Of a stretch of 64,000 nt of DNA, positions 2,441 through 47,925 are shown piece by piece; within the stretch, counting starts at the first letter, position 1; each line of letters begins with the position of its first letter. The stretch comes from Patescibacteria group bacterium (GTDB lineage Bacteria > Patescibacteriota > Minisyncoccia > Phycocordibacterales > UBA9973), in assembly GCA_038061755.1 (NCBI GenBank), contig JBBTYN010000004.1, positions 3,198 through 67,197 of the forward strand, read 5' to 3'. The notes under the pieces were generated by a model. The model was not told the DNA's origin. It ran no database searches and was given only the letters and a program-made list of their open reading frames with translations. The position numbers were made by a program, and so were the translations under genes.

Positions 2441-2734
2441 GTGAGTAAAATAGAAAACAATCAAAATAGTTCTGGTCCGTGGTGGAAACCAGCGATGGAG
2501 ATACTGGGTGAAGTTTCGACATGGATTGTCGTGCCTATTGTGTTGGCATTAGTTTTTGGCAAAATGCTTGATGTGCGTTTCGGAACAAAGCCAGTTATAT
2601 TTTTAGTGTTTGCCGGAATTGGTTTTTTAGTCACTTGTTTTGGTATGTATAGGGTTGTAAAGAATTATATAAAAAAATTACAAGACATTAGTCCCGACAA
2701 AAGTCGGGATCTCGACAAAAGTCGGGAAATATAA
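2441..2734 (+). CDS. atpZ: AtpZ/AtpI-like small membrane protein; putative F0F1-ATPase-associated subunit.
   Basis: Two TM helices with the pattern W...G..LD.RFGTKP. It sits immediately upstream of atpB and uses a GTG start. Confidence 0.55.
   Translation: MSKIENNQNSSGPWWKPAMEILGEVSTWIVVPIVLALVFGKMLDVRFGTKPVIFLVFAGIGFLVTCFGMYRVVKNYIKKLQDISPDKSRDLDKSREI
2692..2727 (+). repeat. Two tandem 18-bp hairpin units (tcccgacaaaagtcggga / tctcgacaaaagtcggga) at the 3' end of atpZ. They encode the repeated peptide PDKSRDLDKSRE.
   Basis: Seen directly: a 6-7 bp stem, CCCGAC/GTCGGG, with an AAAA loop, present twice. Confidence 0.75.
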
Positions 2735-2737
2735 TAT

Positions 2738-3583
2738 ATGGAAAAGATATCTCAAGAAATTACACTTTTTGCCGAACCAATATTTCATGCTGGAAGTTTT
2801 ACTGTTACCAATGCTCTTCTAACTTCTTGGGTTGTTGTTGCTATTATTATAATTTTATCTTTCGTTTTACGTTCAAGACTTAAAACAGTTCCTGGTAAAT
2901 TGCAAAATATTTTTGAATTAATAATTGAAAATGCTCTTGGTCTTTGTGACCAAGTTACAAATAGCAGAGCTCTCTCTGTAAAAATTTTTCCAATCGCTAT
3001 ATCAGTTTTTTTCTTTATTTTAATTAATAATTGGTTGGGGATACTTCCTTTCGGTGGTTTTGGAATCATAGAAAAAAGCGAGGAAGGTCTGGCATTTATT
3101 CCATTTCTTCGTGGAGGTACAGCTGATGTAAATACCACAATCGCGCTTGCAGTAATGGCAGTTGTTGGGGCAAATGTCTTTGGTGTTTTTTCGATCGGCC
3201 TATGGAAAACTTTTAATAAATATGTTAATCTAAAGGTGCTCGGGCAAATATTTACAAAAATAAGAGAAGACAAAACTGTAATTATTGTAGCTCCAATCAC
3301 GTTCTTTGTTGGTTTAATTGAAATTATTGGTGAATTTGCAAAAGTTGCTTCGCTTTCATTTCGTCTTTTTGGAAATGTATTTGCTGGAGAAGTCCTTTTG
3401 GTATCGATGGCAGCCCTAGTGGCTTATATCGTTCCGATACCTTTTCTTTTTCTAGAATTACTTGTGGGAGTTATCCAAGCATTGATTTTTTCAATTTTAT
3501 TGGTGGTTTATTTTACTATTGGAGCTACGGACCATGATGAGCATGAATCTGAACACAAGAAACATGCAATAGCCACAGTTTAA
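2738..3583 (+). CDS. atpB: ATP synthase F0 subunit a.
   Basis: Conserved SLSFRLFGNVFAGE motif containing the essential Arg, multiple TM helices, and operon context. Confidence 0.9.
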   Translation: MEKISQEITLFAEPIFHAGSFTVTNALLTSWVVVAIIIILSFVLRSRLKTVPGKLQNIFELIIENALGLCDQVTNSRALSVKIFPIAISVFFFILINNWLGILPFGGFGIIEKSEEGLAFIPFLRGGTADVNTTIALAVMAVVGANVFGVFSIGLWKTFNKYVNLKVLGQIFTKIREDKTVIIVAPITFFVGLIEIIGEFAKVASLSFRLFGNVFAGEVLLVSMAALVAYIVPIPFLFLELLVGVIQALIFSILLVVYFTIGATDHDEHESEHKKHAIATV

Positions 3584-3647
3584 TTTATTATAAATTATTA
3601 GTCGAAATTATTAGCTTGATTAACCCGCTTTGCCGAGGCTTCGGTGA

Positions 3648-3899
<252 letters not shown>

Positions 3900-3910
3900 A
3901 ATTATTATTT

Positions 3911-4024
3911 GAAAATTTAAAATAGTTTCTTTCAAAAAGCAATCTATCTAGCAAAGCTTTGCTAGCGAACTGCTCGGCTCGTCAGCCTGCGCAAGGCTTT
4001 TCTTAAGAACTATTTTAAATTTTC
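3911..4024. repeat. A ~114-bp intergenic element bounded by perfect 17-bp inverted repeats (gaaaatttaaaatagtt / aactattttaaattttc). Inside it is the perfect 18-bp palindrome ctagcaaagctttgctag (3948..3965).
   Basis: Direct reading of the sequence. It fills the atpE-atpF intergenic region. Confidence 0.7.
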
Positions 4025-4035
4025 AAAAACTACCC

Positions 4036-4482
4036 ATGGATTCAATTATTTCAACATTTCATATAGATTGGAAAATTATTATTGCTCAAGCAATCAATTT
4101 CGGAGTTGTTTTTGTTGTTTTATATATTTTTGCTCTTAAGCCACTTTCCAAGCTGATGGTAGAACGTAGTGAAAGAATTTCTAAAGGAATTGATGATGCA
4201 AAAAAATCTAATGAATTGTTGCAACAATCTGCCGAAGAATATAAACAAAATACAATAAAATTAAGACAGATAGCAATTGATTCTCAAAAAGAACTTACTA
4301 AAGAGTTAGATCAATTGAGAGTAAAAAATCTAGATAGAATAAAAGCAGATAATAATGAATGGACAAAAAAGAGAGCGGAGCAGATGGAAATTGATAAAAA
4401 AGTTTTGGTTGAATCAGCAAAAAACGAACTCGTTACACTTGCGATGCTAGCCGTTAAAAAAATTATGGCAGAAAAAAAATAA
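4036..4482 (+). CDS. atpF: ATP synthase F0 subunit b.
   Basis: N-terminal TM helix followed by a long charged coiled coil, plus operon position. Confidence 0.85.
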   Translation: MDSIISTFHIDWKIIIAQAINFGVVFVVLYIFALKPLSKLMVERSERISKGIDDAKKSNELLQQSAEEYKQNTIKLRQIAIDSQKELTKELDQLRVKNLDRIKADNNEWTKKRAEQMEIDKKVLVESAKNELVTLAMLAVKKIMAEKK

Positions 4483-4500
4483 GTAAAAACAAATAAAATA

Positions 4501-4911
4501 ATGGCAAAAATTTCTCCCAAAAATATAGCAGAAGCAGTGTATGAGGCAACAAAAAACAAGTCGGGACAGGGCTTGGCGTTTGTACTTAAACGCTCGGCTC
4601 AAATAATAAAAGAGAAAAGAATGTTGGGTAAGTCTAATGAAGTCTTAAGTGCTTTGCAAAATATTTTTGATAAAAAAACTGGTACTGTTAGAATGAAAGT
4701 AACAACTACGAATAATATAGGGATAGAGGAGAAAAGTAAATTAGAGAGTGAAATTAAAGAAAAATATAAGGCGCAAATTGTGATAGGTGAATTTTTTAAA
4801 AAAGAAGAATTATTAGGCGGAATGAAGATTGAGGTTGGAGATGAAATATTGGATAATACATACAAAAATAAACTTCAGAAATTAGAAAAATTTTTAATAC
4901 AAGAAAAATAA
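4501..4911 (+). CDS. atpH: ATP synthase delta (OSCP) subunit, short form.
   Basis: C-terminal motif ELLGGMKIEVGDEILDNTYKNKLQKL matches the delta C-terminus, plus operon position. At 136 aa it is shorter than typical delta subunits. Confidence 0.75.
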   Translation: MAKISPKNIAEAVYEATKNKSGQGLAFVLKRSAQIIKEKRMLGKSNEVLSALQNIFDKKTGTVRMKVTTTNNIGIEEKSKLESEIKEKYKAQIVIGEFFKKEELLGGMKIEVGDEILDNTYKNKLQKLEKFLIQEK

Positions 4912-4920
4912 AATAAATAT

Positions 4921-6415
4921 ATGTCAAACCATATCGTAGAAATTTTAAAAAAAGAAATAGAAAATTTTAAAACAGAAATTAAGGTTGAAAAAGTGGGTAA
5001 AGTATTAGAAGTTTTTGATGGCATTGCAAAAGTTTCTGGACTTTCAGATATTAAATCTTCTGAAATGGTAACTTTTTTGAATGGTGAGACGGGGGTGGCT
5101 CTTAACTTAGAGGAAGATACAGTCGGGGTAATTATTTTCGGGGAATTTTCTGCTATTAAAGAAGGGGATGAAGTAAAAGCTACTGGAAAAATTCTTGAAA
5201 TTCCAGTTTCTGATAGTATTTTAGGGAGAGTAGTAAATGCCATTGGTGTTCCTATTGATGGCAAGGGCGCTATAAAAGCCGGAAAAAACGGTTTGCAAAC
5301 TTATCCAATTGAAAAAGTGGCTTCAGGTGTTATTACTCGCTTATCTGTCTCAGAACCAGTTTCTACTGGTATAAAGGTTATTGATGCGATTATTCCTATT
5401 GGTCGTGGGCAACGCGAACTTATTATTGGTGATCGCCAAACTGGAAAAACCGCAATCGTTATTGATACAATTCTTAATCAAAAAGGTCAAGATATGATAT
5501 GCGTGTATGTCTCTATTGGTCAAAAAGATTCTAAATTGAGAAAGATTGAAGCGCGATTAGAAGAAGGCGGAGCGATGGCTTATACAGTTATCGTATCAGC
5601 TGGCGCTTCAGAAGCTGCTTCACTTTCTTATGTTGCGCCATATACAGGAGTAACTATTGCGGAATATTTTATGGATCAAGGTAAAGACGTTTTGATTATT
5701 TATGATGATCTTTCTAAACACGCTGTCGCTTATCGTGAAATTTCTCTTTTGCTCCGTCGTCCACCAGGTCGCGAGGCATACCCAGGAGATGTTTTTTATT
5801 TGCATTCTCGTTTGCTTGAACGCGCTTGTCGTAGAAATAAAGAATATGGCGGAGGTTCCATCACAGCTTTGCCTATTATTGAAACACAGGCTGGCGATGT
5901 GTCAGCATATATTCCAACAAATGTTATTTCTATTACTGATGGACAAATTTTTCTAGAAACTGATCTTTTTTATAAAGGTATTAGGCCTGCGGTAAATGTT
6001 GGTCTTTCTGTTTCTCGTGTTGGTTCTAGTGCTCAGATTAAAGCAATGAAAAAAGTGGCTGGGACATTAAAACTCGATTTAGCGCAGTTTCGTGAGCTTG
6101 AAGCATTTGCTCAATTTGGTTCTGATCTTGATGATGCCACCAAGCGCCAGCTTGAACGCGGAAAGAGAGCGGTAGAAGTATTAAAACAGCTTCAATATGC
6201 GCCAGTAAAAATTGAACACCAAATTGTCACGCTTTATGCTCTTACTAAAGGTTTTATGGATGATGTAGCAATTGATAAAATAAAAGAATTTGAACAAGGA
6301 TTCATGGAATATAGTGAACGTAATGCAAAAGTTTTTTATAAACAAATTGCTGAGAAAAAAATGTGGGATGATAAAGGCGAGGAGGAATTAAAAAAAGCAA
6401 TTGAGGATTTTAAAA

Positions 6416-6429
<14 letters not shown>
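4921..6429 (+). CDS. atpA: ATP synthase F1 alpha subunit.
   Basis: Walker A GDRQTGKT and the conserved alpha-subunit core. Confidence 0.95.
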
Positions 6430-8729
<2,300 letters not shown>

Positions 8730-8730
<1 letters not shown>

Positions 8731-8840
8731 AAATTTTGAATAGTTACTTTTAAAAACCCGCATAAAATTCTACTGAATTTTTGCTTAGACTTTGGCCCGT
8801 CGGCCTTCGTATGATTTTAAAAAGTACTATTCAAAATTTT
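8730..8840. repeat. A ~110-bp intergenic element bounded by 15-bp perfect inverted repeats (aaaattttgaatagt / actattcaaaatttt). The ends are related to those of the element at 3911..4024.
   Basis: Direct reading of the sequence. It fills the atpD-atpC intergenic region. Confidence 0.7.
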
Positions 8841-8849
8841 AAAAAATAT

Positions 8850-9296
8850 ATGTCAAAACAATTAAAACTTAAAATAGTAACTCCAGAACGTCTCGTCTTA
8901 GAAGAAATTGTAGACCAAGTAAGTTTGCCGACCACTCTTGGTGAGATAACAGTTTTGCCAGACCATATCTCTTTGATTACTGGTCTTGTGTCTGGAGATG
9001 TTGTTGCGTTCATAAACGGTGAGCATGTGCCAATGGCTGTTGTTGGTGGATTTGTGGAAATAAAGAAGAATAAAGAAGACCAAACAGAAGTTGCTGTACT
9101 AGCAGACTTTGCTGAACATATTACTGAAATTTCAGATATTGCAATAGAGAAAGCAAAAACTCGCGCGGAAGAGTTGAAGAAGTTGATGGAAAATAAAGAA
9201 CATGTGGACTTTGAACACTTTGAAGCTGAACTCGAACGCTCACTTACTCGTGTAAAAATTGCAGACAAATGGAGAACTAGGAAGTATAGGAAATAA
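8850..9296 (+). CDS. atpC: ATP synthase F1 epsilon subunit.
   Basis: Starts MSKQLKLKIVTPERLV, a beta-sandwich plus C-terminal helices. I chose ATG 8850 over the upstream in-frame ATG 8781 of the ORF track. Confidence 0.85.
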   Translation: MSKQLKLKIVTPERLVLEEIVDQVSLPTTLGEITVLPDHISLITGLVSGDVVAFINGEHVPMAVVGGFVEIKKNKEDQTEVAVLADFAEHITEISDIAIEKAKTRAEELKKLMENKEHVDFEHFEAELERSLTRVKIADKWRTRKYRK

Positions 9297-10273: not shown

Positions 10274-10317
10274 GCCAAAGGGCATCTTTGACACACTTGT
10301 CAAAGATGCCCTTTGGC
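10274..10317. repeat. Nested palindromic element, copy 1, variant A: gccaaagggcatctttgaca-cact-tgtcaaagatgccctttggc. It lies between the convergent genes rsmI and priA.
   Basis: Perfect 20-bp arms. Sits between two converging genes. Confidence 0.9.
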
Positions 10318-12369: not shown

Positions 12370-13383
12370 ATGAGATTTTTTTCACGTAAATTAGGAATAG
12401 ATTTAGGTACAGCCAATACTTTAGTATTTATACCTGGTAAGGGTATTGTTTTAAATGAGCCTTCAGTTGTGGCAGTTTCTGAACAGGATAATAAAATTAT
12501 AGCGATTGGTTTTGAGGCGAAAGACATGATAGGCAAAACTCCAGATTCAATAATTACTTATTGTCCTATGAAAGATGGAGTTATTGCAGATTATAGAGTG
12601 ACCGAAGCAATGCTTCGTTATTTTATAAGTAAGGCAATGGGTAAATTTAGTTTTTTTAAGCCAGATGTAATGGTTTCTGTTCCTGCTGGTGTTACCTCTA
12701 CTGAAAGACGAGCTGTGATTGAAGCAGCAATACGCGCGGGCGCTAAAAATGCTTATGTGGTTAAGGAGCCAATATTGGCAGCGATTGGCGCTGGAATTCC
12801 TATTTATGAATCAAAAGGTTATATGGTAGTTGATATTGGCGGAGGCACAACAGATGTAGCTGTAATATCCTTAGGTGGGATTGTCGCATCAACTTCAGTT
12901 AAATTTGCTGGAAATAAAATAGATATTGCGATAGCAGATTATATTAAAAAAACTTTTAATCTTGCAATTGGCGATAGGACAGCCGAAGAAGTTAAAATTA
13001 AAATTGGTGCGGCGGTACCTTTAGAAGAAGAGCTTCGTGTGACAATCAAGGGTAGAGATTTTATTCAAGGATTACCTCGAAGCGCTCAAGTAGGAACTAA
13101 TGAAATAGTAAAAGCCATAGATGCAGAATTAAGGCAAATTATAAAAGCAATCAAAGATGTCTTACAAGAAATTCCACCAGAGCTTGCTTCCGACATTATT
13201 GATCATGGAATTATTATGACGGGTGGTTCTTCTCAATTACGAAATCTTACAGATTTGGTTTATAGAAAAACTGGAGTTAAAGCTACTTTAGCTGAAGATC
13301 CTCTTTTTTGTGTGGTTAAAGGCACAGGTATTGCTTTGGAACATTTAAGTGTTTATAAGAAAACAGTTTTAAGTAAGAAATGA
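12370..13383 (+). CDS. mreB: Rod-shape-determining protein MreB.
   Basis: Actin-fold signature GIDLGTANTLVF... Start chosen at MRFFSRKLGIDLG. Confidence 0.9.
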   Translation: MRFFSRKLGIDLGTANTLVFIPGKGIVLNEPSVVAVSEQDNKIIAIGFEAKDMIGKTPDSIITYCPMKDGVIADYRVTEAMLRYFISKAMGKFSFFKPDVMVSVPAGVTSTERRAVIEAAIRAGAKNAYVVKEPILAAIGAGIPIYESKGYMVVDIGGGTTDVAVISLGGIVASTSVKFAGNKIDIAIADYIKKTFNLAIGDRTAEEVKIKIGAAVPLEEELRVTIKGRDFIQGLPRSAQVGTNEIVKAIDAELRQIIKAIKDVLQEIPPELASDIIDHGIIMTGGSSQLRNLTDLVYRKTGVKATLAEDPLFCVVKGTGIALEHLSVYKKTVLSKK

Positions 13384-14165
13384 TTTCAAAACATTTAGAT
13401 AAGAATAATTTACACCATGCGTACTTGATAGAAGGCGCACAAAGTAAAATTATTCCGGATATCATAAAATTTTTAAAAAGTTTAGGTATAAACACTGTTG
13501 GTAATCCTGATTTTGTTAATATCTCAATTGATAATTTTAAAATTGATGAGGCTTTTAGTTTACGTTCCATGTCATCAGATAAAGGATTTTCTTCTGCTCT
13601 ATCTGCGCAGGCAGGAAAAAAGATATTTATGATTTGCGTTAACAATGTATCTTTAGATGCTCAAAATGTATTGCTAAAAATGTTTGAAGAGCCAATAGAA
13701 AATACACACTTTTTTTTGATAGTACCAGACGTTAATGCTCTTCTAAAAACTTTAGTCTCTAGATTTTATTTTGTTTCAGCTAGGCAAGATCTAGCTGAAA
13801 CAGAAGAAACGAGAAAGGCAGAAAAATTTATTACTATGTCGTTAAAAAGCAGAATTGATTTCATTAAAGAATTATTAGTAGAAGAGGAAACAGAAGATGA
13901 AGATGGAAATGAAATAGTTGTTTTAAATTCCACTCGTTCTAAAGCTTTAAAGTTTTTAAATGCGCTAGAGTTTGTTTTGCATAAAAAAATCTTAGATGTG
14001 TCCTTTAATATAAGTTTCTTTGAACATTTTTTTAAAGTTCGTAAATATTTACGTATGCCAGGTTCGTCCGCTAAAAGTTTAATGGAGTCAGTGGCATTAA
14101 TTATACCAAATATGTTACAATATGGAGTACCATATAAAAATGGCATTCGGACATTAAACAAATAA
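13380..14165 (+). CDS. holB: DNA polymerase III delta' subunit.
   Basis: HAYLIEG, LLKMFEEP and TLVSR motifs of the clamp-loader delta' subunit. Confidence 0.75.
   Translation: MISKHLDKNNLHHAYLIEGAQSKIIPDIIKFLKSLGINTVGNPDFVNISIDNFKIDEAFSLRSMSSDKGFSSALSAQAGKKIFMICVNNVSLDAQNVLLKMFEEPIENTHFFLIVPDVNALLKTLVSRFYFVSARQDLAETEETRKAEKFITMSLKSRIDFIKELLVEEETEDEDGNEIVVLNSTRSKALKFLNALEFVLHKKILDVSFNISFFEHFFKVRKYLRMPGSSAKSLMESVALIIPNMLQYGVPYKNGIRTLNK
13773..13801. repeat. Inverted repeat gtttcagctag-gcaagat-ctagctgaaac (11-bp arms) inside the holB coding region.
   Basis: Seen directly. It shares the core AGCTAGGCAAGAyCTAGC with the palindrome at 28161..28208. Confidence 0.7.
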
Positions 14166-22138: not shown

Positions 22139-22154
22139 GTAAATTGCCAAAGAT

Positions 22155-22199
22155 GCCAAAGATGCCCTTTGACACTGAGTGTCAAAGGGCATCTTTGGC
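22155..22199. repeat. Nested palindromic element, copy 2, variant B: gccaaagatgccctttgacac-tga-gtgtcaaagggcatctttggc. It is preceded by a partial direct duplicate, gccaaagat. It lies between the convergent genes parB and rel.
   Basis: Perfect 21-bp arms. Confidence 0.9.
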
Positions 22200-22204
22200 A
22201 AACA

Positions 22205-26899: not shown

Positions 26900-28171
26900 A
26901 TGTTAGACATCAAATTTATTCGTGAAAATAAAGATATTGTGCAGGCGGGTGCGAAGAAAAAAAATATTGAGATAGATATTGATGCTTTGATTGTGCTTGA
27001 TGATAATCGCTTAAAAGAACTTAAAGAAGTAGAAGAACTTCGTAGTGAAGTAAATAGAGTTTCAAATGATATATCTCGCGATCAAGATCCAGCATCCAAA
27101 ATTCAACTAATTGAAGAAATGCGCGCAGTGAAAGAAGACATTAAAGCAAAAGAAGAAAAATTAAAAATAACCATAGAAGAATGGCAGAAAATTATGGTGC
27201 AAGTGCCTAATGTGCCAGATATGTCTGTACCAGATGGAAAAACAGATGTGGAAAACAAAGAAGTAAAAGTTTGGGGTGAAATTCCAAAATTTGATTTTAC
27301 TCCTAAAAATCATATTGAGCTTATGGAAAATTTAGGAATACTTGATATGGCTAGAGGTGTAAAAGTTGCTGGTTTTCGTGGATATTTTTTAAAGGGTGAT
27401 GGAGCTCTTCTTGAATTTGCTTTATGGCAGTTTGTGCAGGATTTCTTTTCTAAAAAAGGAGGCTTTATTCCGATGATTGTTCCTTCTCTTTTGAAACGAG
27501 AAGTATTTTTAGGTACTGGTTATCTTCCGCAAGGTGAAGAAGATTTATACAAAACGCAAGATGGCGAGTATTTATCAGGTACAGCAGAAGTTGCAATGAT
27601 GGGGCACTATATGGGTGAAATTTTAGAAAAAAAAGATCTGCCAATAAAAATGCTTGGATTTTCTTCTGCTTTTCGTCGTGAGGCGGGAAGTCATGGTAAA
27701 GATACAAAAGGTATTCTTAGAGTTCATGAATTTTTTAAATTTGAACAAGTTGTACTTTGTGAAGCACAACATACAGAATCAGTAAAATTTCATGAAGAAA
27801 TACAACGTAATACTGAAGAAATTATGGAGGCATTAGGATTGCCTTATCATGTGGTAATAAACTGTGCTGGAGATCTTGGTTTGGGTCAAGTTAAAAAATA
27901 TGACATTGAAGCTTATTTGCCATCTGAAAATACCTATCGGGAAACTGGTTCTGCTAGTTATTTTCATGATTTTCAAACAAGACGATTAAATATCCGTTAT
28001 CGTGATGAAAATGGTAAATTAAAATTTGTTCACTCTTTAAATAATACTGCTCTTTCTGGTAGACCACTCATTATGATAGTAGAAAACTACCAACAAGCAG
28101 ACGGATCTATAAAAATTCCAGAAGTTTTACGCAAATACATGGGAGGTAAGGAATTTATAAAAAATAGCTAG
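26900..28171 (+). CDS. serS: Seryl-tRNA synthetase.
   Basis: N-terminal coiled coil MLDIKFIREN and class II motifs. ATG 26900 preferred as the start. Confidence 0.9.
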   Translation: MLDIKFIRENKDIVQAGAKKKNIEIDIDALIVLDDNRLKELKEVEELRSEVNRVSNDISRDQDPASKIQLIEEMRAVKEDIKAKEEKLKITIEEWQKIMVQVPNVPDMSVPDGKTDVENKEVKVWGEIPKFDFTPKNHIELMENLGILDMARGVKVAGFRGYFLKGDGALLEFALWQFVQDFFSKKGGFIPMIVPSLLKREVFLGTGYLPQGEEDLYKTQDGEYLSGTAEVAMMGHYMGEILEKKDLPIKMLGFSSAFRREAGSHGKDTKGILRVHEFFKFEQVVLCEAQHTESVKFHEEIQRNTEEIMEALGLPYHVVINCAGDLGLGQVKKYDIEAYLPSENTYRETGSASYFHDFQTRRLNIRYRDENGKLKFVHSLNNTALSGRPLIMIVENYQQADGSIKIPEVLRKYMGGKEFIKNS

Positions 28172-28208
28172 GCAAGACCTAGCATGCTAGGTCTTGCCTA
28201 GCTATTTT
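28161..28208. repeat. Perfect 48-bp palindrome aaaatagctaggcaagacctagcatgctaggtcttgcctagctatttt. It overlaps the serS stop codon.
   Basis: Seen directly. Likely a terminator or attenuator hairpin between serS and the downstream gene. Confidence 0.85.
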
Positions 28209-29101: not shown

Positions 29102-30137
29102 AAAAAATTTCTGGAAAAATCTTGAAAAACCATTTTTTTGTTTAGCGCCAATGTCGGACGTTACCGATATTGCTTTCCGCTCCATATTGATGAAATATAG
29201 CAAGGATAGAGAAAATAAAAACAGTGTTGTTTTTTGGACAGAATTTGTTGCAGCTGATGGTTTGTGCAATAAACTTGCTAGAAAAAAACTAGCGCATATA
29301 TTAAAATTTAAAGAGAGCGAAAGACCAATTGTAGCTCAAGTTTTTGGTGCTAATCCTGATAATATGAAGTATGCTTGCCAATATATTGCTAGCCTTGGTT
29401 TTGATGGGATAGATATAAATATGGGTTGTCCAGATAAATCTGTGGTAAGCCAAGGAGCAGGTTCTGGTTTGATTAAAAATCCATTACTTGCCAGAAAAAT
29501 TATACAGGCGGCACACGCTGGGATAGATTCTGCTGGTCTACATATCCCAGTATCTATTAAAACAAGAATTGGTTTTAATAAAGAAGAAATTGATATTTGG
29601 ATAGGGGAATTGTTAAAAGAGGATATTTCTGCTTTAACAATTCATTTGCGTACCACTAAGGAATTATCACTTGCACCGGCACATTGGGATTTAATGAAAA
29701 GAATTATTGAATTACGAAATAAAATAAGCCCAGAGACTTTAATAATTGGCAATGGAGATGTAAAAGATTTAAAAGATGGGGAGGAAAAAGCTCTAAAGTA
29801 TGGTTGTGATGGAGTTATGATCGGTCGTGGAGTTTTTGGTAATCCTTGGTTTTTTAAAAGCCAAAGGGCACCTTTGACACACTTGTCAAAGGTGCCCTTT
29901 GGCAATGAGGAATCAAATGTTAAAGAAAAATTAAAAATTTTAGTAGAGCACACACAGATTTTCGAAAAGGAACTTTCAGGACCTAAACATAAAAGTTTTG
30001 CCGTTATGAAAAAGCATTTTAAAGCGTATGTGAATGGTTTTGAAGATGCAAAAGAGCTTCGAGTAAAATTAATGGAAACAGAAAATGCTAAAGAAGTTGA
30101 GAAGATAGTTAATGATTTTTTAACTCGCCTACATTAA
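29058..30137 (+). CDS. dus: tRNA-dihydrouridine synthase. It carries an in-frame copy of the palindromic element at 29860..29903.
   Basis: FFCLAPMSDVTD, VAQVFG, INMGCP and GVMIGRG motifs of Dus. The start may instead be ATG 29085. Confidence 0.85.
   Translation: MICDSKIKFMTNSNKKNFWKNLEKPFFCLAPMSDVTDIAFRSILMKYSKDRENKNSVVFWTEFVAADGLCNKLARKKLAHILKFKESERPIVAQVFGANPDNMKYACQYIASLGFDGIDINMGCPDKSVVSQGAGSGLIKNPLLARKIIQAAHAGIDSAGLHIPVSIKTRIGFNKEEIDIWIGELLKEDISALTIHLRTTKELSLAPAHWDLMKRIIELRNKISPETLIIGNGDVKDLKDGEEKALKYGCDGVMIGRGVFGNPWFFKSQRAPLTHLSKVPFGNEESNVKEKLKILVEHTQIFEKELSGPKHKSFAVMKKHFKAYVNGFEDAKELRVKLMETENAKEVEKIVNDFLTRLH
29860..29903. repeat. Nested palindromic element, copy 3, variant A. It lies inside the dus ORF and is translated as QRAPLTHLSKVPFG.
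   Basis: Perfect palindrome with the ORF left open. Relative to copy 1 it has the compensatory change t/a to c/g. Confidence 0.9.
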
Positions 30138-31542: not shown

Positions 31543-32088
31543 TTATTTATTAATTTCCTCCATAAGACTTTCAACACTTTGTCCTGTATAAAGAATAGTC
31601 TTTAAATTTGGATATTTTTTAAAATCAAGATTTTCAAAGTGCTTTACTTTATCATCAATAAATATTACCTTTTCATTTTTATGTTTTGCGCATATTTTTT
31701 CTACAGATTCCTTTTTGCTTCCTTGAACGACAATAATTTTAGAAAATAGGGAAGTAATATCTGTTTTTTTTATTTTATCTAATTGCCATTCCTCGCCTCC
31801 ATGGGTTACGATATAGCAATTTTCTTTTCCTAATTTCTTTATTTCATTTACTAAATCTTTATTCAAAAAATTCTCACTCCTTTCTAAAATTTTTTCATAC
31901 CAATCTTCTTTAAGAGAAAAATGACTTAGCATTTCTTTTAACCAAAATCCACTTATCCTTACTCCTTTATAATATTCTTTGGCTTGAGTACGAGGTATAC
32001 CTGCTTTTTCTAAACACGCATACATATGATCCTTAAATTGTTTTGTATTATTAAACAAGACATCATCAAAATCAAAAATATATTTCAT
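31543..32088 (-). CDS. HAD-superfamily hydrolase.
   Basis: N-terminal DxD motif (FDFDDVLF), a C-terminal Asp motif (IFIDDK), and an overall HAD topology. Confidence 0.6.
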   Translation of the reverse strand: MKYIFDFDDVLFNNTKQFKDHMYACLEKAGIPRTQAKEYYKGVRISGFWLKEMLSHFSLKEDWYEKILERSENFLNKDLVNEIKKLGKENCYIVTHGGEEWQLDKIKKTDITSLFSKIIVVQGSKKESVEKICAKHKNEKVIFIDDKVKHFENLDFKKYPNLKTILYTGQSVESLMEEINK

Positions 32089-46377: not shown

Positions 46378-47925
46378 ATGATAAAAGAAAATAAAAAAAT
46401 AAAATCAGCTTTAATTTCAGTTTTTAATAAAGATGGACTTGAAGAAATTGTAAAACTTCTTCATAGGCATAATGTAAAAATTATTTCTACTGGTGGTACG
46501 GCAGAATTTATTCGCAAACTTAGTGTACCAGTAACTGAAGTAGAAGAAATCACAAATTATCCTGCCTTATTTGGTGGTAGAGTTAAAACACTGCAACCAC
46601 AAATTTTTGGCGGGATTTTAAATCGCCGAGATAATGTAAATGATATAAAAGAAAAAGTGGAGCACAAAATAGAAGACATTGATTTGGTAATCGTAGACCT
46701 ATATCCATTTGAAGAAACTCTAGCTAGTGGAGCTAATGAGGAAGAAATTATTGAAAAAATAGACATCGGCGGAGTATCTTTAATTCGCGCAGCGGCGAAA
46801 AATTTTAATGATGTCGTAGTGATTCCTTCAAAACATCAATATGAAGAATTAAAAAATATTTTAAAAATAAGTGACACTACGACATTAGAACAACGCAAAA
46901 AATTTGCAGGCAATGCATTTGAAGTGACAAGTATTTACGATAGTGCTATTCGTGGGTATTTTCAACCTTTGCCAAAGATGCCCTTTGACATATTGATGTC
47001 AAAGGGCATCTTTGGCAATATCCCGCTGCGCTATGGAGAAAACCCACACCAAAGAGCAAAATTTATAGGTAATTTAGAAGAGAGTTTTATACAACTTCAT
47101 GGAAAAGAGCTTTCTTATAATAATTTGATGGATACTGAAGCTGCCATTATGACCGTTTATGATTTTAGAGATCCTGCTTTCGCTATTGTTAAACATATGA
47201 ATACTTGCGGTCTGGCTGTTAGGGAAGAAGGACATTTATTTGAGGCGTATCAAGCAGCTTATAATGCCGACCCACTTTCAGCTTTTGGTGGAGTATTAAC
47301 AGCTAATAGAATTATTGAGGAAGACATCGCTAAACTTATCAAGGAACAAAAACTTTTTATAGAAGTAATTATTGCGCCAGATTTTTCAAAAGAAGCTTTA
47401 AATATTTTAATGGAGAAAAAGGATTGTAGAATTTTGAGGTGGAAAAAACCAAACCTTCCGCTAAAACAAAACAAGACTTGCTTTACTGGAATTCTGTCGC
47501 AAGATCGAGATACTCATATAGAAAGTGAGACAGATTTAAAAGTGACAACTAAGCGTGAACCAACAGAGCAAGAGAAAAAGGATTTACTCATTGCTGCAGT
47601 AATAACGAAACATTTAAAATCTAATGCTATCGCTTTAGTAAAAGATGGAACACTTCTTTCAATGGGTTGTGGACAAACTTCACGCATTGATGCATTAAAA
47701 CAAGCTATTGATAAAGCCAAAAAATTTAAATTTTCACTCAAGGGTGCTGTTATGTCATCTGAAGCATTTTTCCCATTTCCTGATTGCGTAGAGATGGCAG
47801 GGGAAGAAGGTATAACTGCTGTACTTCATCCTGGAGGTTCAAAGAATGATCAAACATCCATAGATATGGCAAATAAATACAAAATGGCAATGGTAACAAC
47901 TGGCTTTAGACATTTTAAGCATTGA
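46378..47925 (+). CDS. purH: Bifunctional AICAR transformylase / IMP cyclohydrolase. It carries an in-frame copy of the palindromic element at 46971..47016.
   Basis: MGS-like N-terminal domain and an AICARFT domain (LRYGENPHQ). Confidence 0.9.
   Translation: MIKENKKIKSALISVFNKDGLEEIVKLLHRHNVKIISTGGTAEFIRKLSVPVTEVEEITNYPALFGGRVKTLQPQIFGGILNRRDNVNDIKEKVEHKIEDIDLVIVDLYPFEETLASGANEEEIIEKIDIGGVSLIRAAAKNFNDVVVIPSKHQYEELKNILKISDTTTLEQRKKFAGNAFEVTSIYDSAIRGYFQPLPKMPFDILMSKGIFGNIPLRYGENPHQRAKFIGNLEESFIQLHGKELSYNNLMDTEAAIMTVYDFRDPAFAIVKHMNTCGLAVREEGHLFEAYQAAYNADPLSAFGGVLTANRIIEEDIAKLIKEQKLFIEVIIAPDFSKEALNILMEKKDCRILRWKKPNLPLKQNKTCFTGILSQDRDTHIESETDLKVTTKREPTEQEKKDLLIAAVITKHLKSNAIALVKDGTLLSMGCGQTSRIDALKQAIDKAKKFKFSLKGAVMSSEAFFPFPDCVEMAGEEGITAVLHPGGSKNDQTSIDMANKYKMAMVTTGFRHFKH
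46971..47016. repeat. Nested palindromic element, copy 4, variant B. It lies inside the purH ORF at the inter-domain linker and is translated as LPKMPFDILMSKGIFG.
   Basis: gccaaagatgccctttgacat-attg-atgtcaaagggcatctttggc with 21-bp perfect arms. The ORF is left open. Confidence 0.9.

Follow-up and report, generated by a model that had tools for sequence, protein, structure and literature searches.

The atpD-atpC spacer of a patescibacterial ATP synthase operon probably holds one copy of a dispersed palindromic repeat family with a conserved core and locus-specific arms

The ATP Synthase Operon and Its Filled Spacers

The 64-kb stretch of patescibacterial DNA analysed here, referred to below as the window, has a G+C content of about 33% and encodes, on its plus strand, a complete F-type ATP synthase operon. 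Two spacers of this operon, one between atpE and atpF and the other between atpD and atpC, are each filled by a palindromic element. The features of the region are as follows.

2738-3583, plus strand: atpB
3663-3899, plus strand: atpE
3903-4032, plus strand: another copy of the family, which occupies the atpE-atpF spacer (inverted repeat, fold, covariance model match 3925-4010)
3908-3938 and 3996-4027, plus strand: arms of the atpE-atpF copy, which can extend to 3903 and 4032
3939-3995, plus strand: A-type core of the atpE-atpF copy, with hairpin A at 3948-3965 and hairpin B at 3976-3987
4036-4482, plus strand: atpF, followed by atpH, atpA and atpG
7357-8730, plus strand: atpD, F1 beta subunit, the gene upstream of the element (Pfam ATP-synt_ab on the public gene call; 84-89% identical to AtpD of Minisyncoccia/Nomurabacteria)
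8726-8844, plus strand (as the atp genes): whole repeat element of the atpD-atpC spacer, with C-type core and alpha-type inner arms (inverted repeat, fold, covariance model match 8742-8828)
8726-8756, plus strand: left arm, 31 nt, with a conserved inner-arm part, AATAGTTACTTTTAAAAA, and a locus-specific outer part, TTTAAAAATTTTG; the stop codon of atpD, TAA, lies within this arm at 8728-8730 (inverted repeat, comparison of orthologous copies)
8757-8813, plus strand: Y-shaped core, 57 nt (fold, alignment)
8764-8781, plus strand: hairpin A, AAAATTC-TACT-GAATTTT, a variable, covarying stem with a WRYU-like loop (fold; compensatory changes in 7 of 7 pairs, 98 copies)
8794-8813, plus strand: hairpin B, GGCC-CGTC-GGCC (8794-8805), with the conserved 3' tail TTCGTATG; the best-conserved part of the family (shared motif, alignment)
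8814-8844, plus strand: right arm, 31 nt, ending 5 nt upstream of the atpC start (inverted repeat)
8850-9296, plus strand: atpC, epsilon subunit, most likely starting at ATG 8850 (MSKQLKLKIVTPE...)

A contig from 0.1-µm-filtered groundwater of the Hainich encodes an identical AtpD, and the genomes with the closest AtpD are a Minisyncoccia MAG (87%), the bin of an uncultured bacterium (84%) and a Candidatus Nomurabacteria MAG (89%). The public gene call makes atpC 13 residues longer by starting it at ATG 8811, in the right half of the element; judged by the relatives, the true start is most likely ATG 8850. A recognisable Shine-Dalgarno sequence is absent before every atp gene (window 2441-9296), and the leaders are A/T-rich, so the absence of such a sequence upstream of atpC and atpF reflects the genome rather than the element.

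Inverted Repeats and Predicted Fold of the Two Spacers

The first-pass annotation of this DNA had described the atpD-atpC spacer as bounded by 15-bp inverted repeats, and both arms, aaaattttgaatagt (8731-8745) and actattcaaaatttt (8826-8840), are present at these positions. The inverted repeat is real and, when mismatches are allowed, grows to 30 nt (8726-8755 and 8815-8844), with 87% complementarity and 59 nt separating the arms, so that it spans the spacer from 2 nt upstream of the atpD stop codon to 5 nt upstream of the atpC start codon. The atpE-atpF spacer holds an inverted repeat of 25 nt (3903-3927 and 4008-4032) that is 92% complementary. The minimum free energies are -32.5 kcal/mol for the atpD-atpC spacer and -40.8 kcal/mol for the atpE-atpF spacer, with z-scores of -5.5 and -5.4, respectively, and none of 200 shuffles equals either value; calculated on either strand against shuffled sequence, z lies between -5.4 and -6.0 for both spacers. 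In the predicted architecture, which is common to both, a long stem closes the structure and is followed by an inner stem and by a three-way junction bearing two hairpins.

An intrinsic (Rho-independent) terminator was considered and rejected. The stems of the window copies are A/T-rich and are followed by AAAA rather than by a run of T, and copies of the family also lie between divergent genes. A scan of the atp region for terminators and promoters returned only a weak alternative hairpin of 5 bp, located within the atpE-atpF core.

Homology of the Two Elements

It had further been claimed that the ends of the two elements are related, in the form AAATTT.AA.TAGTT. The elements are indeed homologous, but their homology lies mainly in the interior, and the ends are not a family signature. 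The end motif AAATTTNAANTAGTT has seven matches in the window at no more than one mismatch versus 1.9 expected, a number reached by 2 of 100 shuffles; as a signature it was rejected, being only marginally enriched over the AT-rich background and revealing no new elements in the window. Aligning the two elements, a check proposed in the first-pass annotation, reveals a common GC-rich interior, in which the motif GGCYCGTCRGCCT is identical in both (3976 and 8794). The sequences GGCCCGTCGGCCT at 8794 and GGCTCGTCAGCCT at 3976 each form a 4-bp hairpin with a CGTC loop, and their closing pair differs by a compensatory change. With the covariance model of the family, the atpE-atpF copy scores 96.7 bits (E = 1e-21) and the atpD-atpC copy 56.3 bits (E = 2.7e-11), while nothing in the rest of the 64-kb window exceeds 14 bits. 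The window thus holds exactly two copies (model R1, filters off), both in the sense orientation and both within the atp operon.

That the two spacers resemble each other only through AT-rich, low-complexity composition, and that the inverted repeats are chance hairpins, is extremely improbable. Such a reading can draw on the marginal enrichment of the end motif, taken alone, but it is contradicted by the exact match of the GC-rich interior motif, by the covariance model scores of both elements, by the fold z-scores of about -5.5 and by more than 100 homologous copies elsewhere. The circumstances under which the first-pass annotation would have abandoned the resemblance, namely ends explained by AT-rich background and no other copies, are therefore not those found. 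The feature in the atpD-atpC spacer is real and homologous to the atpE-atpF element.

A Repeat Family with a Covarying Y-Shaped Core

Metagenome contigs were scanned for the core pattern GGCYCGNCRGCCTKCGYAWGNNWTT, for which about ten chance matches were expected on a back-of-envelope estimate. At least 119 metagenome stretches matched; about ten of those listed are GC-rich chance matches and about 100 are true copies, and 101 distinct core sequences occur among the matches listed. The family copies listed come from Patescibacteria of groundwater (Hainich) and, apparently, also of sediment, peat and lake samples.

The elements are about 120 bp long, with a range of about 92-175 bp. Their core of about 57 nt is Y-shaped and asymmetric, carrying a variable hairpin A and a conserved hairpin B side by side, and is closed by an inner stem that is A/U-rich and contains a conserved internal loop. 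Hairpin B has the consensus GGCY-CGNC-RGCC, followed by UKCGYAWG, and together with this 3' tail is almost invariant. Three core types differ in the 5' half and have CTCGGCYCGNCRGCCTKCGYAWG in common: type A, GCAATCTATCT-[GC-rich hairpin]-AGCGAACTG...; type B, TGCACACATA-[AT-rich hairpin]-TTGCTCTG...; and type C, to which the atpD-atpC copy of the window belongs, CCCGCATA-[hairpin]-TTGCTTAGACTT....

The structure is strongly supported by covariation. In an alignment of 98 sequences, 15 of the 21 pairs of the consensus structure show compensatory changes; 97.6% of the cells are paired, versus 69.6% in column shuffles and 31-53% when the partners are slid by 1-3 columns. Cells with double changes number 590 versus 178 in shuffles, and none of 500 shuffles reaches 590. 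Hairpin A accepts up to four pair types per position, with compensatory changes at all seven of its pairs (98 copies), and hairpin B is closed by U-A in 73 copies and by C-G in 25. Conservation extends to the hairpin loops (WGCU and CGNC). In two copies (L096 and L128; L numbers denote individual contigs, loci or genomes) the tip of hairpin B is swapped for a long AT-rich hairpin, and an extra hairpin is present in L101 and L108.

Adjoining copies were also observed, arranged head-to-head in L187 (1669-1753 on the minus strand and 1791-1876 on the plus strand) and in tandem in L154 (37-121 and 134-218). In the second L187 copy, hairpin B reads GCGC-CGTC-GCGC, a further compensatory variant.

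Conserved Inner Arms and Locus-Specific Outer Arms

The arms were measured by anchoring at the core, extending outward and scoring complementarity. They are typically 25-45 nt long, of which the outer arms make up about 10-30 bp. Two types of inner arms are found: the alpha type, AATAGCTTCTCTCGAAAAGC ... GCTTTTCTTAAGAACTATT, which has a conserved bulge and a 3x3 internal loop and is the type of both window copies, and the beta type, AAAACTCTTTCTTGGCATACTTTTTATAAAGC ... GCTTTCTAAAAAGTACGCCTGCGACGAGTTTT. Arm types and core types combine variously. The outer arms are nearly perfectly complementary within a copy and unrelated between loci, with a complementarity score of 23-24 within one copy versus 4-15 between copies of the same subtype.

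Of the ends quoted in the first-pass annotation, only 'ATAG...CTAT' falls in the conserved inner-arm subtype, the outer arms being locus-specific; '.TAGTT' was seen at both spacers because both window copies have alpha-type inner arms.

The atpD-atpC Junction in Related Lineages

At least ten lineages have a copy of the family between atpD and atpC, with the element in the sense orientation in seven and inverted in three; one further lineage has an internal deletion. The three genomes closest in AtpD are L002, L003 and L004. The sense copies are those of the window (C core), of L126, L152, L180, L196 and L197 (A core) and of L002 (diverged), and the inverted copies are those of L003/L198 and L153 (B core) and of L095 (A core). 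The interior of the L003 copy, once reverse-complemented, matches the core of the atpE-atpF copy of the window at 27 of 28 nt. In L004, the junction holds only a short hairpin; AATAGCTTCTCTCGAAAAGCAAT is retained and the sequence then jumps to TTCAAAAAT, which makes this an internal deletion of an A-type copy, not an empty site.

Sense and antisense copies at this junction have outer arms that are alike in gene orientation, TAAAAATTTT.AAATAG ... CTATTT.AAAATTTT, whereas the inner arms and the core of the antisense copies are reverse-complemented relative to the sense ones. Like outer arms around a reverse-complemented interior are as expected from recombination between the inverted arms of the element itself ('flip/flop'). 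Comparison of the orthologous spacers shows that occupation of the junction predates the divergence of these lineages, and that the element was later inverted between its own arms in some of them and internally deleted in one.

Among the five sense copies with an A core, core identity is 0.84, versus a third-codon identity of 0.53-0.57 in the flanking atpD and atpC; the core differences, judged by eye, lie mostly in the covarying stem of hairpin A. Since the core is better conserved than the flanking synonymous sites, something still constrains it. On a shorter time scale, 99.3%-identical strains from other Hainich wells have both copies present in unchanged orientation, and no filled/empty or flip polymorphism was found among them (in L203, a gap of N lies downstream of atpC). 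Their only change is found in L203, where the left arm of the atpD-atpC copy has lost 1 nt and pairs better as a result.

Elsewhere, the atpE-atpF spacers of L002 and L003 are long and unrelated to the element, and the more distant Patescibacteria L005, L006, L009, L011 and L012 have empty atpD-atpC spacers of 3-15 nt. Different structures were also observed at the atpD-atpC junction: an unrelated element of about 95 nt bracketed by GTATCGATACGAATATAC... repeats in L014 (7358-7455), and three unrelated GC-rich hairpins in L007 (7380-7480). In L002 (Minisyncoccia; 7480-7535), a GC-rich insert of 32 nt, CCCTCCTTCGCTAAAGCTTTGGACGGGCAAGG, separates the initial 16 nt of atpC, ATGTCAAAACAATTAA, from a new atpC start; this insert may be another small inserted element.

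These data bear on the 'conserved operon-internal RNA device' that the first-pass annotation had suggested. In such a reading the element would resemble a repeat in appearance only and would act in cis, dedicated to this operon, to adjust the stoichiometry of the ATP synthase subunits through processing, attenuation or stabilisation of the RNA. The occupation of the junction in at least ten lineages, with synonymous sites near saturation, agrees with that suggestion, as do the deletion that improves the stem in L203 and the palindromic elements of unrelated sequence found there in L007 and L014, as if a hairpin were favoured at this position. Both window copies are, moreover, in the sense orientation and lie at two of the three large stoichiometric step-downs, c to b and beta to epsilon; this coincidence is suggestive, although for both of two copies to fall on step-downs among seven junctions has a chance probability of about 0.14. 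However, about 90% of the copies among the matches listed adjoin non-atp genes, in every gene context, and the element at atpD-atpC itself is inverted in three lineages and deleted in one. In addition, the atpE-atpF copy is missing from the closest genomes, L002 and L003, and many Patescibacteria make do with 3-15 nt between atpD and atpC. An atp-specific device is accordingly considered quite unlikely, and what endures of the suggestion is the long occupation of this one junction.

Dispersal, Gene Context and Strand Symmetry

Model R1 finds 88 copies across 84 fetched loci, with 2-4 copies on many contigs, including four within 14 kb in L177 and three in L201. The density is roughly one copy per 30 kb; this is a crude estimate, to which the 64-kb window contributes two copies and the fetched flanks, some 600 kb, about 18 further ones. 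According to rough gene calls, 26 copies are sense and 13 antisense between co-directional genes, 16 lie between convergent and 11 between divergent genes; the ratio of 26:13 includes orthologous copies, which are not independent. The core is usually 25-55 nt from each flanking gene, so that the element forms essentially the entire spacer. When the neighbouring ORFs were clustered (n = 567), no gene was common to more than nine loci. The recurrent neighbours are housekeeping genes, encoding AtpD/AtpC, RecA, S15 (rpsO), RbfA, RuvA, a SpoU methylase, ExoIII and a TMEM175-like channel, and recA is flanked by the element on both sides in L136. Copies in all contexts and both orientations identify the element as a dispersed REP/MITE-like repeat rather than an atp-specific device.

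No transposase, RAYT or reverse transcriptase was found adjoining any copy among the 567 clustered ORFs, and no conserved promoter accompanies the copies. In IMG/VR, a phage collection and a plasmid collection, only one GC-rich chance match to the core was found, and the element is not obviously phage- or plasmid-borne. Rfam 15 at the gathering threshold returned only three tRNAs in the window; at E <= 10, applied to the window, four loci and the two elements alone, it returned generic-hairpin matches only, which scored 6-19 bits where the thresholds are 37-249. Hammerhead, twister, twister-sister, pistol, hatchet and HDV-like ribozymes were rejected, as none of their Rfam models matched near the gathering score; a hammerhead-like CUGANGA core on the minus strand, checked by hand, is absent from the atpD-atpC copy of the window, as are GAAA and stem III.

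G-U pairs make up about 4% on both strands, with 47 versus 45 in the variable arms, and are almost absent from hairpin A. The folding energy is slightly better on the minus strand, a result dominated by the conserved arm subtypes. Rare and strand-symmetric G-U pairs, together with both orientations and all gene contexts, point to complementarity kept at the DNA level or on both strands, and argue against selection on one transcript. An additional role at the RNA level would still be compatible with the moderate excess of sense copies (26:13) and with how strongly the core is conserved.

Such a role is taken furthest in the reading of the family as a multi-copy structured non-coding RNA or small ribozyme-like RNA, in which the Y-core of about 60 nt would be the functional unit, freed by cleavage in the long closing stem. 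The core is far better conserved than neutral sites, its covariation is strong and its hairpin loops (WGCU, CGNC) are conserved; the replaceable tip of hairpin B (L096, L128) and the extra hairpins (L101, L108) resemble the variation of genuine RNA families, and the moderate sense bias points in the same direction. Nevertheless, the copies lack a conserved promoter, one third of the co-directional copies are antisense and others lie between divergent genes, and Rfam, self-cleaving ribozymes included, yields no family match even at E <= 10. The lack of any strand asymmetry in G-U/A-C, with G-U nearly absent from the covarying hairpin, fits complementarity at the DNA level better. An RNA family of this kind is therefore improbable.

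Short Hainich contigs L207 and L208 end inside the atpE-atpF element, and several other metagenome matches also lie at contig ends (L083, L102, L137 and L164), which suggests that the repeat causes assembly breaks.

Comparison with Known Repeat Systems

The first-pass annotation had alternatively proposed two copies of a MITE family. The two copies do belong to one dispersed, multi-copy family, and the likeness to MITEs extends to small size (92-175 bp), the absence of coding sequence and more than 100 listed copies, with up to four per contig; however, terminal inverted repeats common to all copies, which in MITEs are the transposase binding sites, are lacking, and neither a target-site duplication nor, among the clustered neighbouring ORFs, a related transposase was found. 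No direct repeats are visible at the canonical-end copies L098, L125, L158, L099 and L089, whose flanks are AT-rich.

Correia elements (CREE) of Neisseria are intergenic sequences of about 100-150 bp with long inverted ends and a conserved core that are often co-transcribed, and their stem is an RNase III substrate or protected by RNase III, with altered expression of the adjacent gene (PMC2649163, PMC10969869). The present family resembles them in size, non-coding intergenic position, inverted ends and conserved core. In contrast, CREE, whose core contains an IHF site, have a conserved 26-bp terminal repeat and a TA target duplication, whereas here the outer arms differ at each locus and no duplication can be seen. 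Nor are the sequences similar, and Neisseria belongs to another phylum.

REP sequences, BIMEs and REPINs are extragenic, multi-copy, hairpin-forming and long-lived, contain no internal transposase and are associated with RAYT transposases (PMC3116915, PMC3337134). The strictly Watson-Crick complementarity of the present family is REP-like and suggests recognition as folded single-stranded DNA (PMC3116915, PMC3337134). REPINs, however, consist of two inverted copies of one conserved REP (20-40 nt) around a short spacer, whereas here an asymmetric core is conserved and the arms are not, and no RAYT (Y1 HUH transposase) adjoins any copy examined. ERIC changes mRNA decay in an orientation-dependent manner, BOX is modular and the Chunjie MITE lies within an operon without breaking it (PMC10969869, PMC3049150). 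ERIC/IRU, the pneumococcal BOX/RUP/SPRITE repeats and Chunjie are, like the present family, small interspersed repeats in transcribed intergenic regions, but they are conserved over the full length or at the ends and match neither in sequence nor in architecture, as conservation here is confined to the core and the arms are locus-specific.

Integron attC sites were rejected as well, since these have conserved R''/R' ends (RYYYAAC / GTTRRRY), a variable centre and an arrangement in cassette arrays, the opposite of the conserved centre, variable ends and housekeeping neighbours found here. A structural analogue is the inverted terminal repeat of the parvovirus AAV, in which a long stem is capped by two side-by-side hairpins (T/Y) and which occurs in flip and flop orientations through inversion of the palindromic stem. 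The analogy is structural only and implies no homology; in AAV the repeat forms the replication origin at each terminus of a linear single-stranded viral genome, whereas the elements described here are chromosomal, intergenic and multi-copy.

The element is thus a core-conserved, arm-variable, flip/flop palindromic repeat within the REP/ERIC/Correia/BOX class. Because it lacks the shared terminal repeats of a classical MITE, shows no visible target duplication and does not have what defines a REPIN, a Correia element, an attC site or a terminator, it is treated as a distinct form within that class. A full-text literature search for the core, as DNA and as RNA, and for such repeats in Patescibacteria/Parcubacteria returned no description; we could not find the family described, and we class it among the small interspersed palindromic repeats already known as a kind.

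Proposed Spread and Possible Roles

Taken together, the atpD-atpC spacer is likely to represent one copy of a dispersed, multi-copy palindromic intergenic repeat family of Patescibacteria (Minisyncoccia/Nomurabacteria-like genomes and relatives), for which both a mode of spread and a role in the atp mRNA can be proposed. The element may spread, or may once have spread, as non-autonomous DNA, with a trans-acting enzyme recognising the conserved Y-core, probably as folded single-stranded DNA. The complementarity of the arms could be kept or extended either by insertion into pre-existing palindromes (hairpin loops), which has a precedent in the insertion of IS1397 in BIMEs, or by template switching within a strand.

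Within the atp operon, the element would be co-transcribed with the genes, and its stem of about 30 bp would sequester the atpD stop codon. This stem is possibly a processing or stability site of the atp mRNA, most likely a double-strand-specific processing site (an RNase III substrate) or a barrier to 3' exonucleases, as for REP, ERIC and Correia elements. Processing or a barrier at this point may help the genes upstream, with abundant products (c, beta), to be expressed independently of those downstream, with scarce products (b, epsilon). An RNase III signature motif was not found within the 64-kb window, a scope that is uninformative for the whole genome.

The conservation of the core points to a continuing sequence-specific function beyond that of a 'selfish repeat' alone. 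We regard it as a tentative, somewhat unlikely extension of the dispersed-repeat reading that a conserved protein of Patescibacteria recognises the Y-core as a functional module, rather than the core being decayed selfish DNA alone, either in a new kind of mobile element that inserts into or builds palindromes or as a multi-copy small RNA cut from host transcripts in the long stem. A mobile element with a folded core, if it exists, would explain the copy-specific, perfectly complementary arms as well as the flipping, and in either form the module would amount to a hitherto overlooked genome feature, found throughout a lineage of bacteria with genomes of about 1 Mb and kept at conserved sites such as atpD-atpC.

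The genomes of Patescibacteria are among the smallest and most tightly packed of bacteria, so dispersed repeats are not expected to persist there, and the element sits within or around essential operons and genes (atp, recA, rpsO and rbfA). Its combination of a conserved asymmetric core, locus-specific complementary arms and flip/flop orientation is unlike that of MITE, REP, REPIN, Correia, ERIC or BOX sequences, and this architecture poses a testable question about the origin of the arms, namely hairpin-loop insertion versus palindrome extension by template switching. The element also misleads gene callers, as at the public atpC start inside it, and the covariance model is ready for use in annotating Patescibacteria genomes.

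Other Palindromes in the Window

Two other long inverted repeats of the window (13348-13496 and 31732-31894) lie within coding sequence and are unrelated to the family. Directly after a gene, at 28161-28208, a perfect palindrome of 24+24 nt, AAAATAGCTAGGCAAGACCTAGCA|TGCTAGGTCTTGCCTAGCTATTTT, has ends, AAAATAGCT...AGCTATTTT, that resemble the alpha inner arms. A second, unrelated family of palindromes occurs at gene ends (10274-10317, 22154-22200, 29860-29903 and 46970-47017) and consists of perfect 20-23-bp hairpins of TGTCAAAGRKGCCCTTTGGC with loops of 1-4 nt, for which 12 half-site matches were counted versus 0 expected. In appearance, these hairpins are REP-like or bidirectional-terminator-like.
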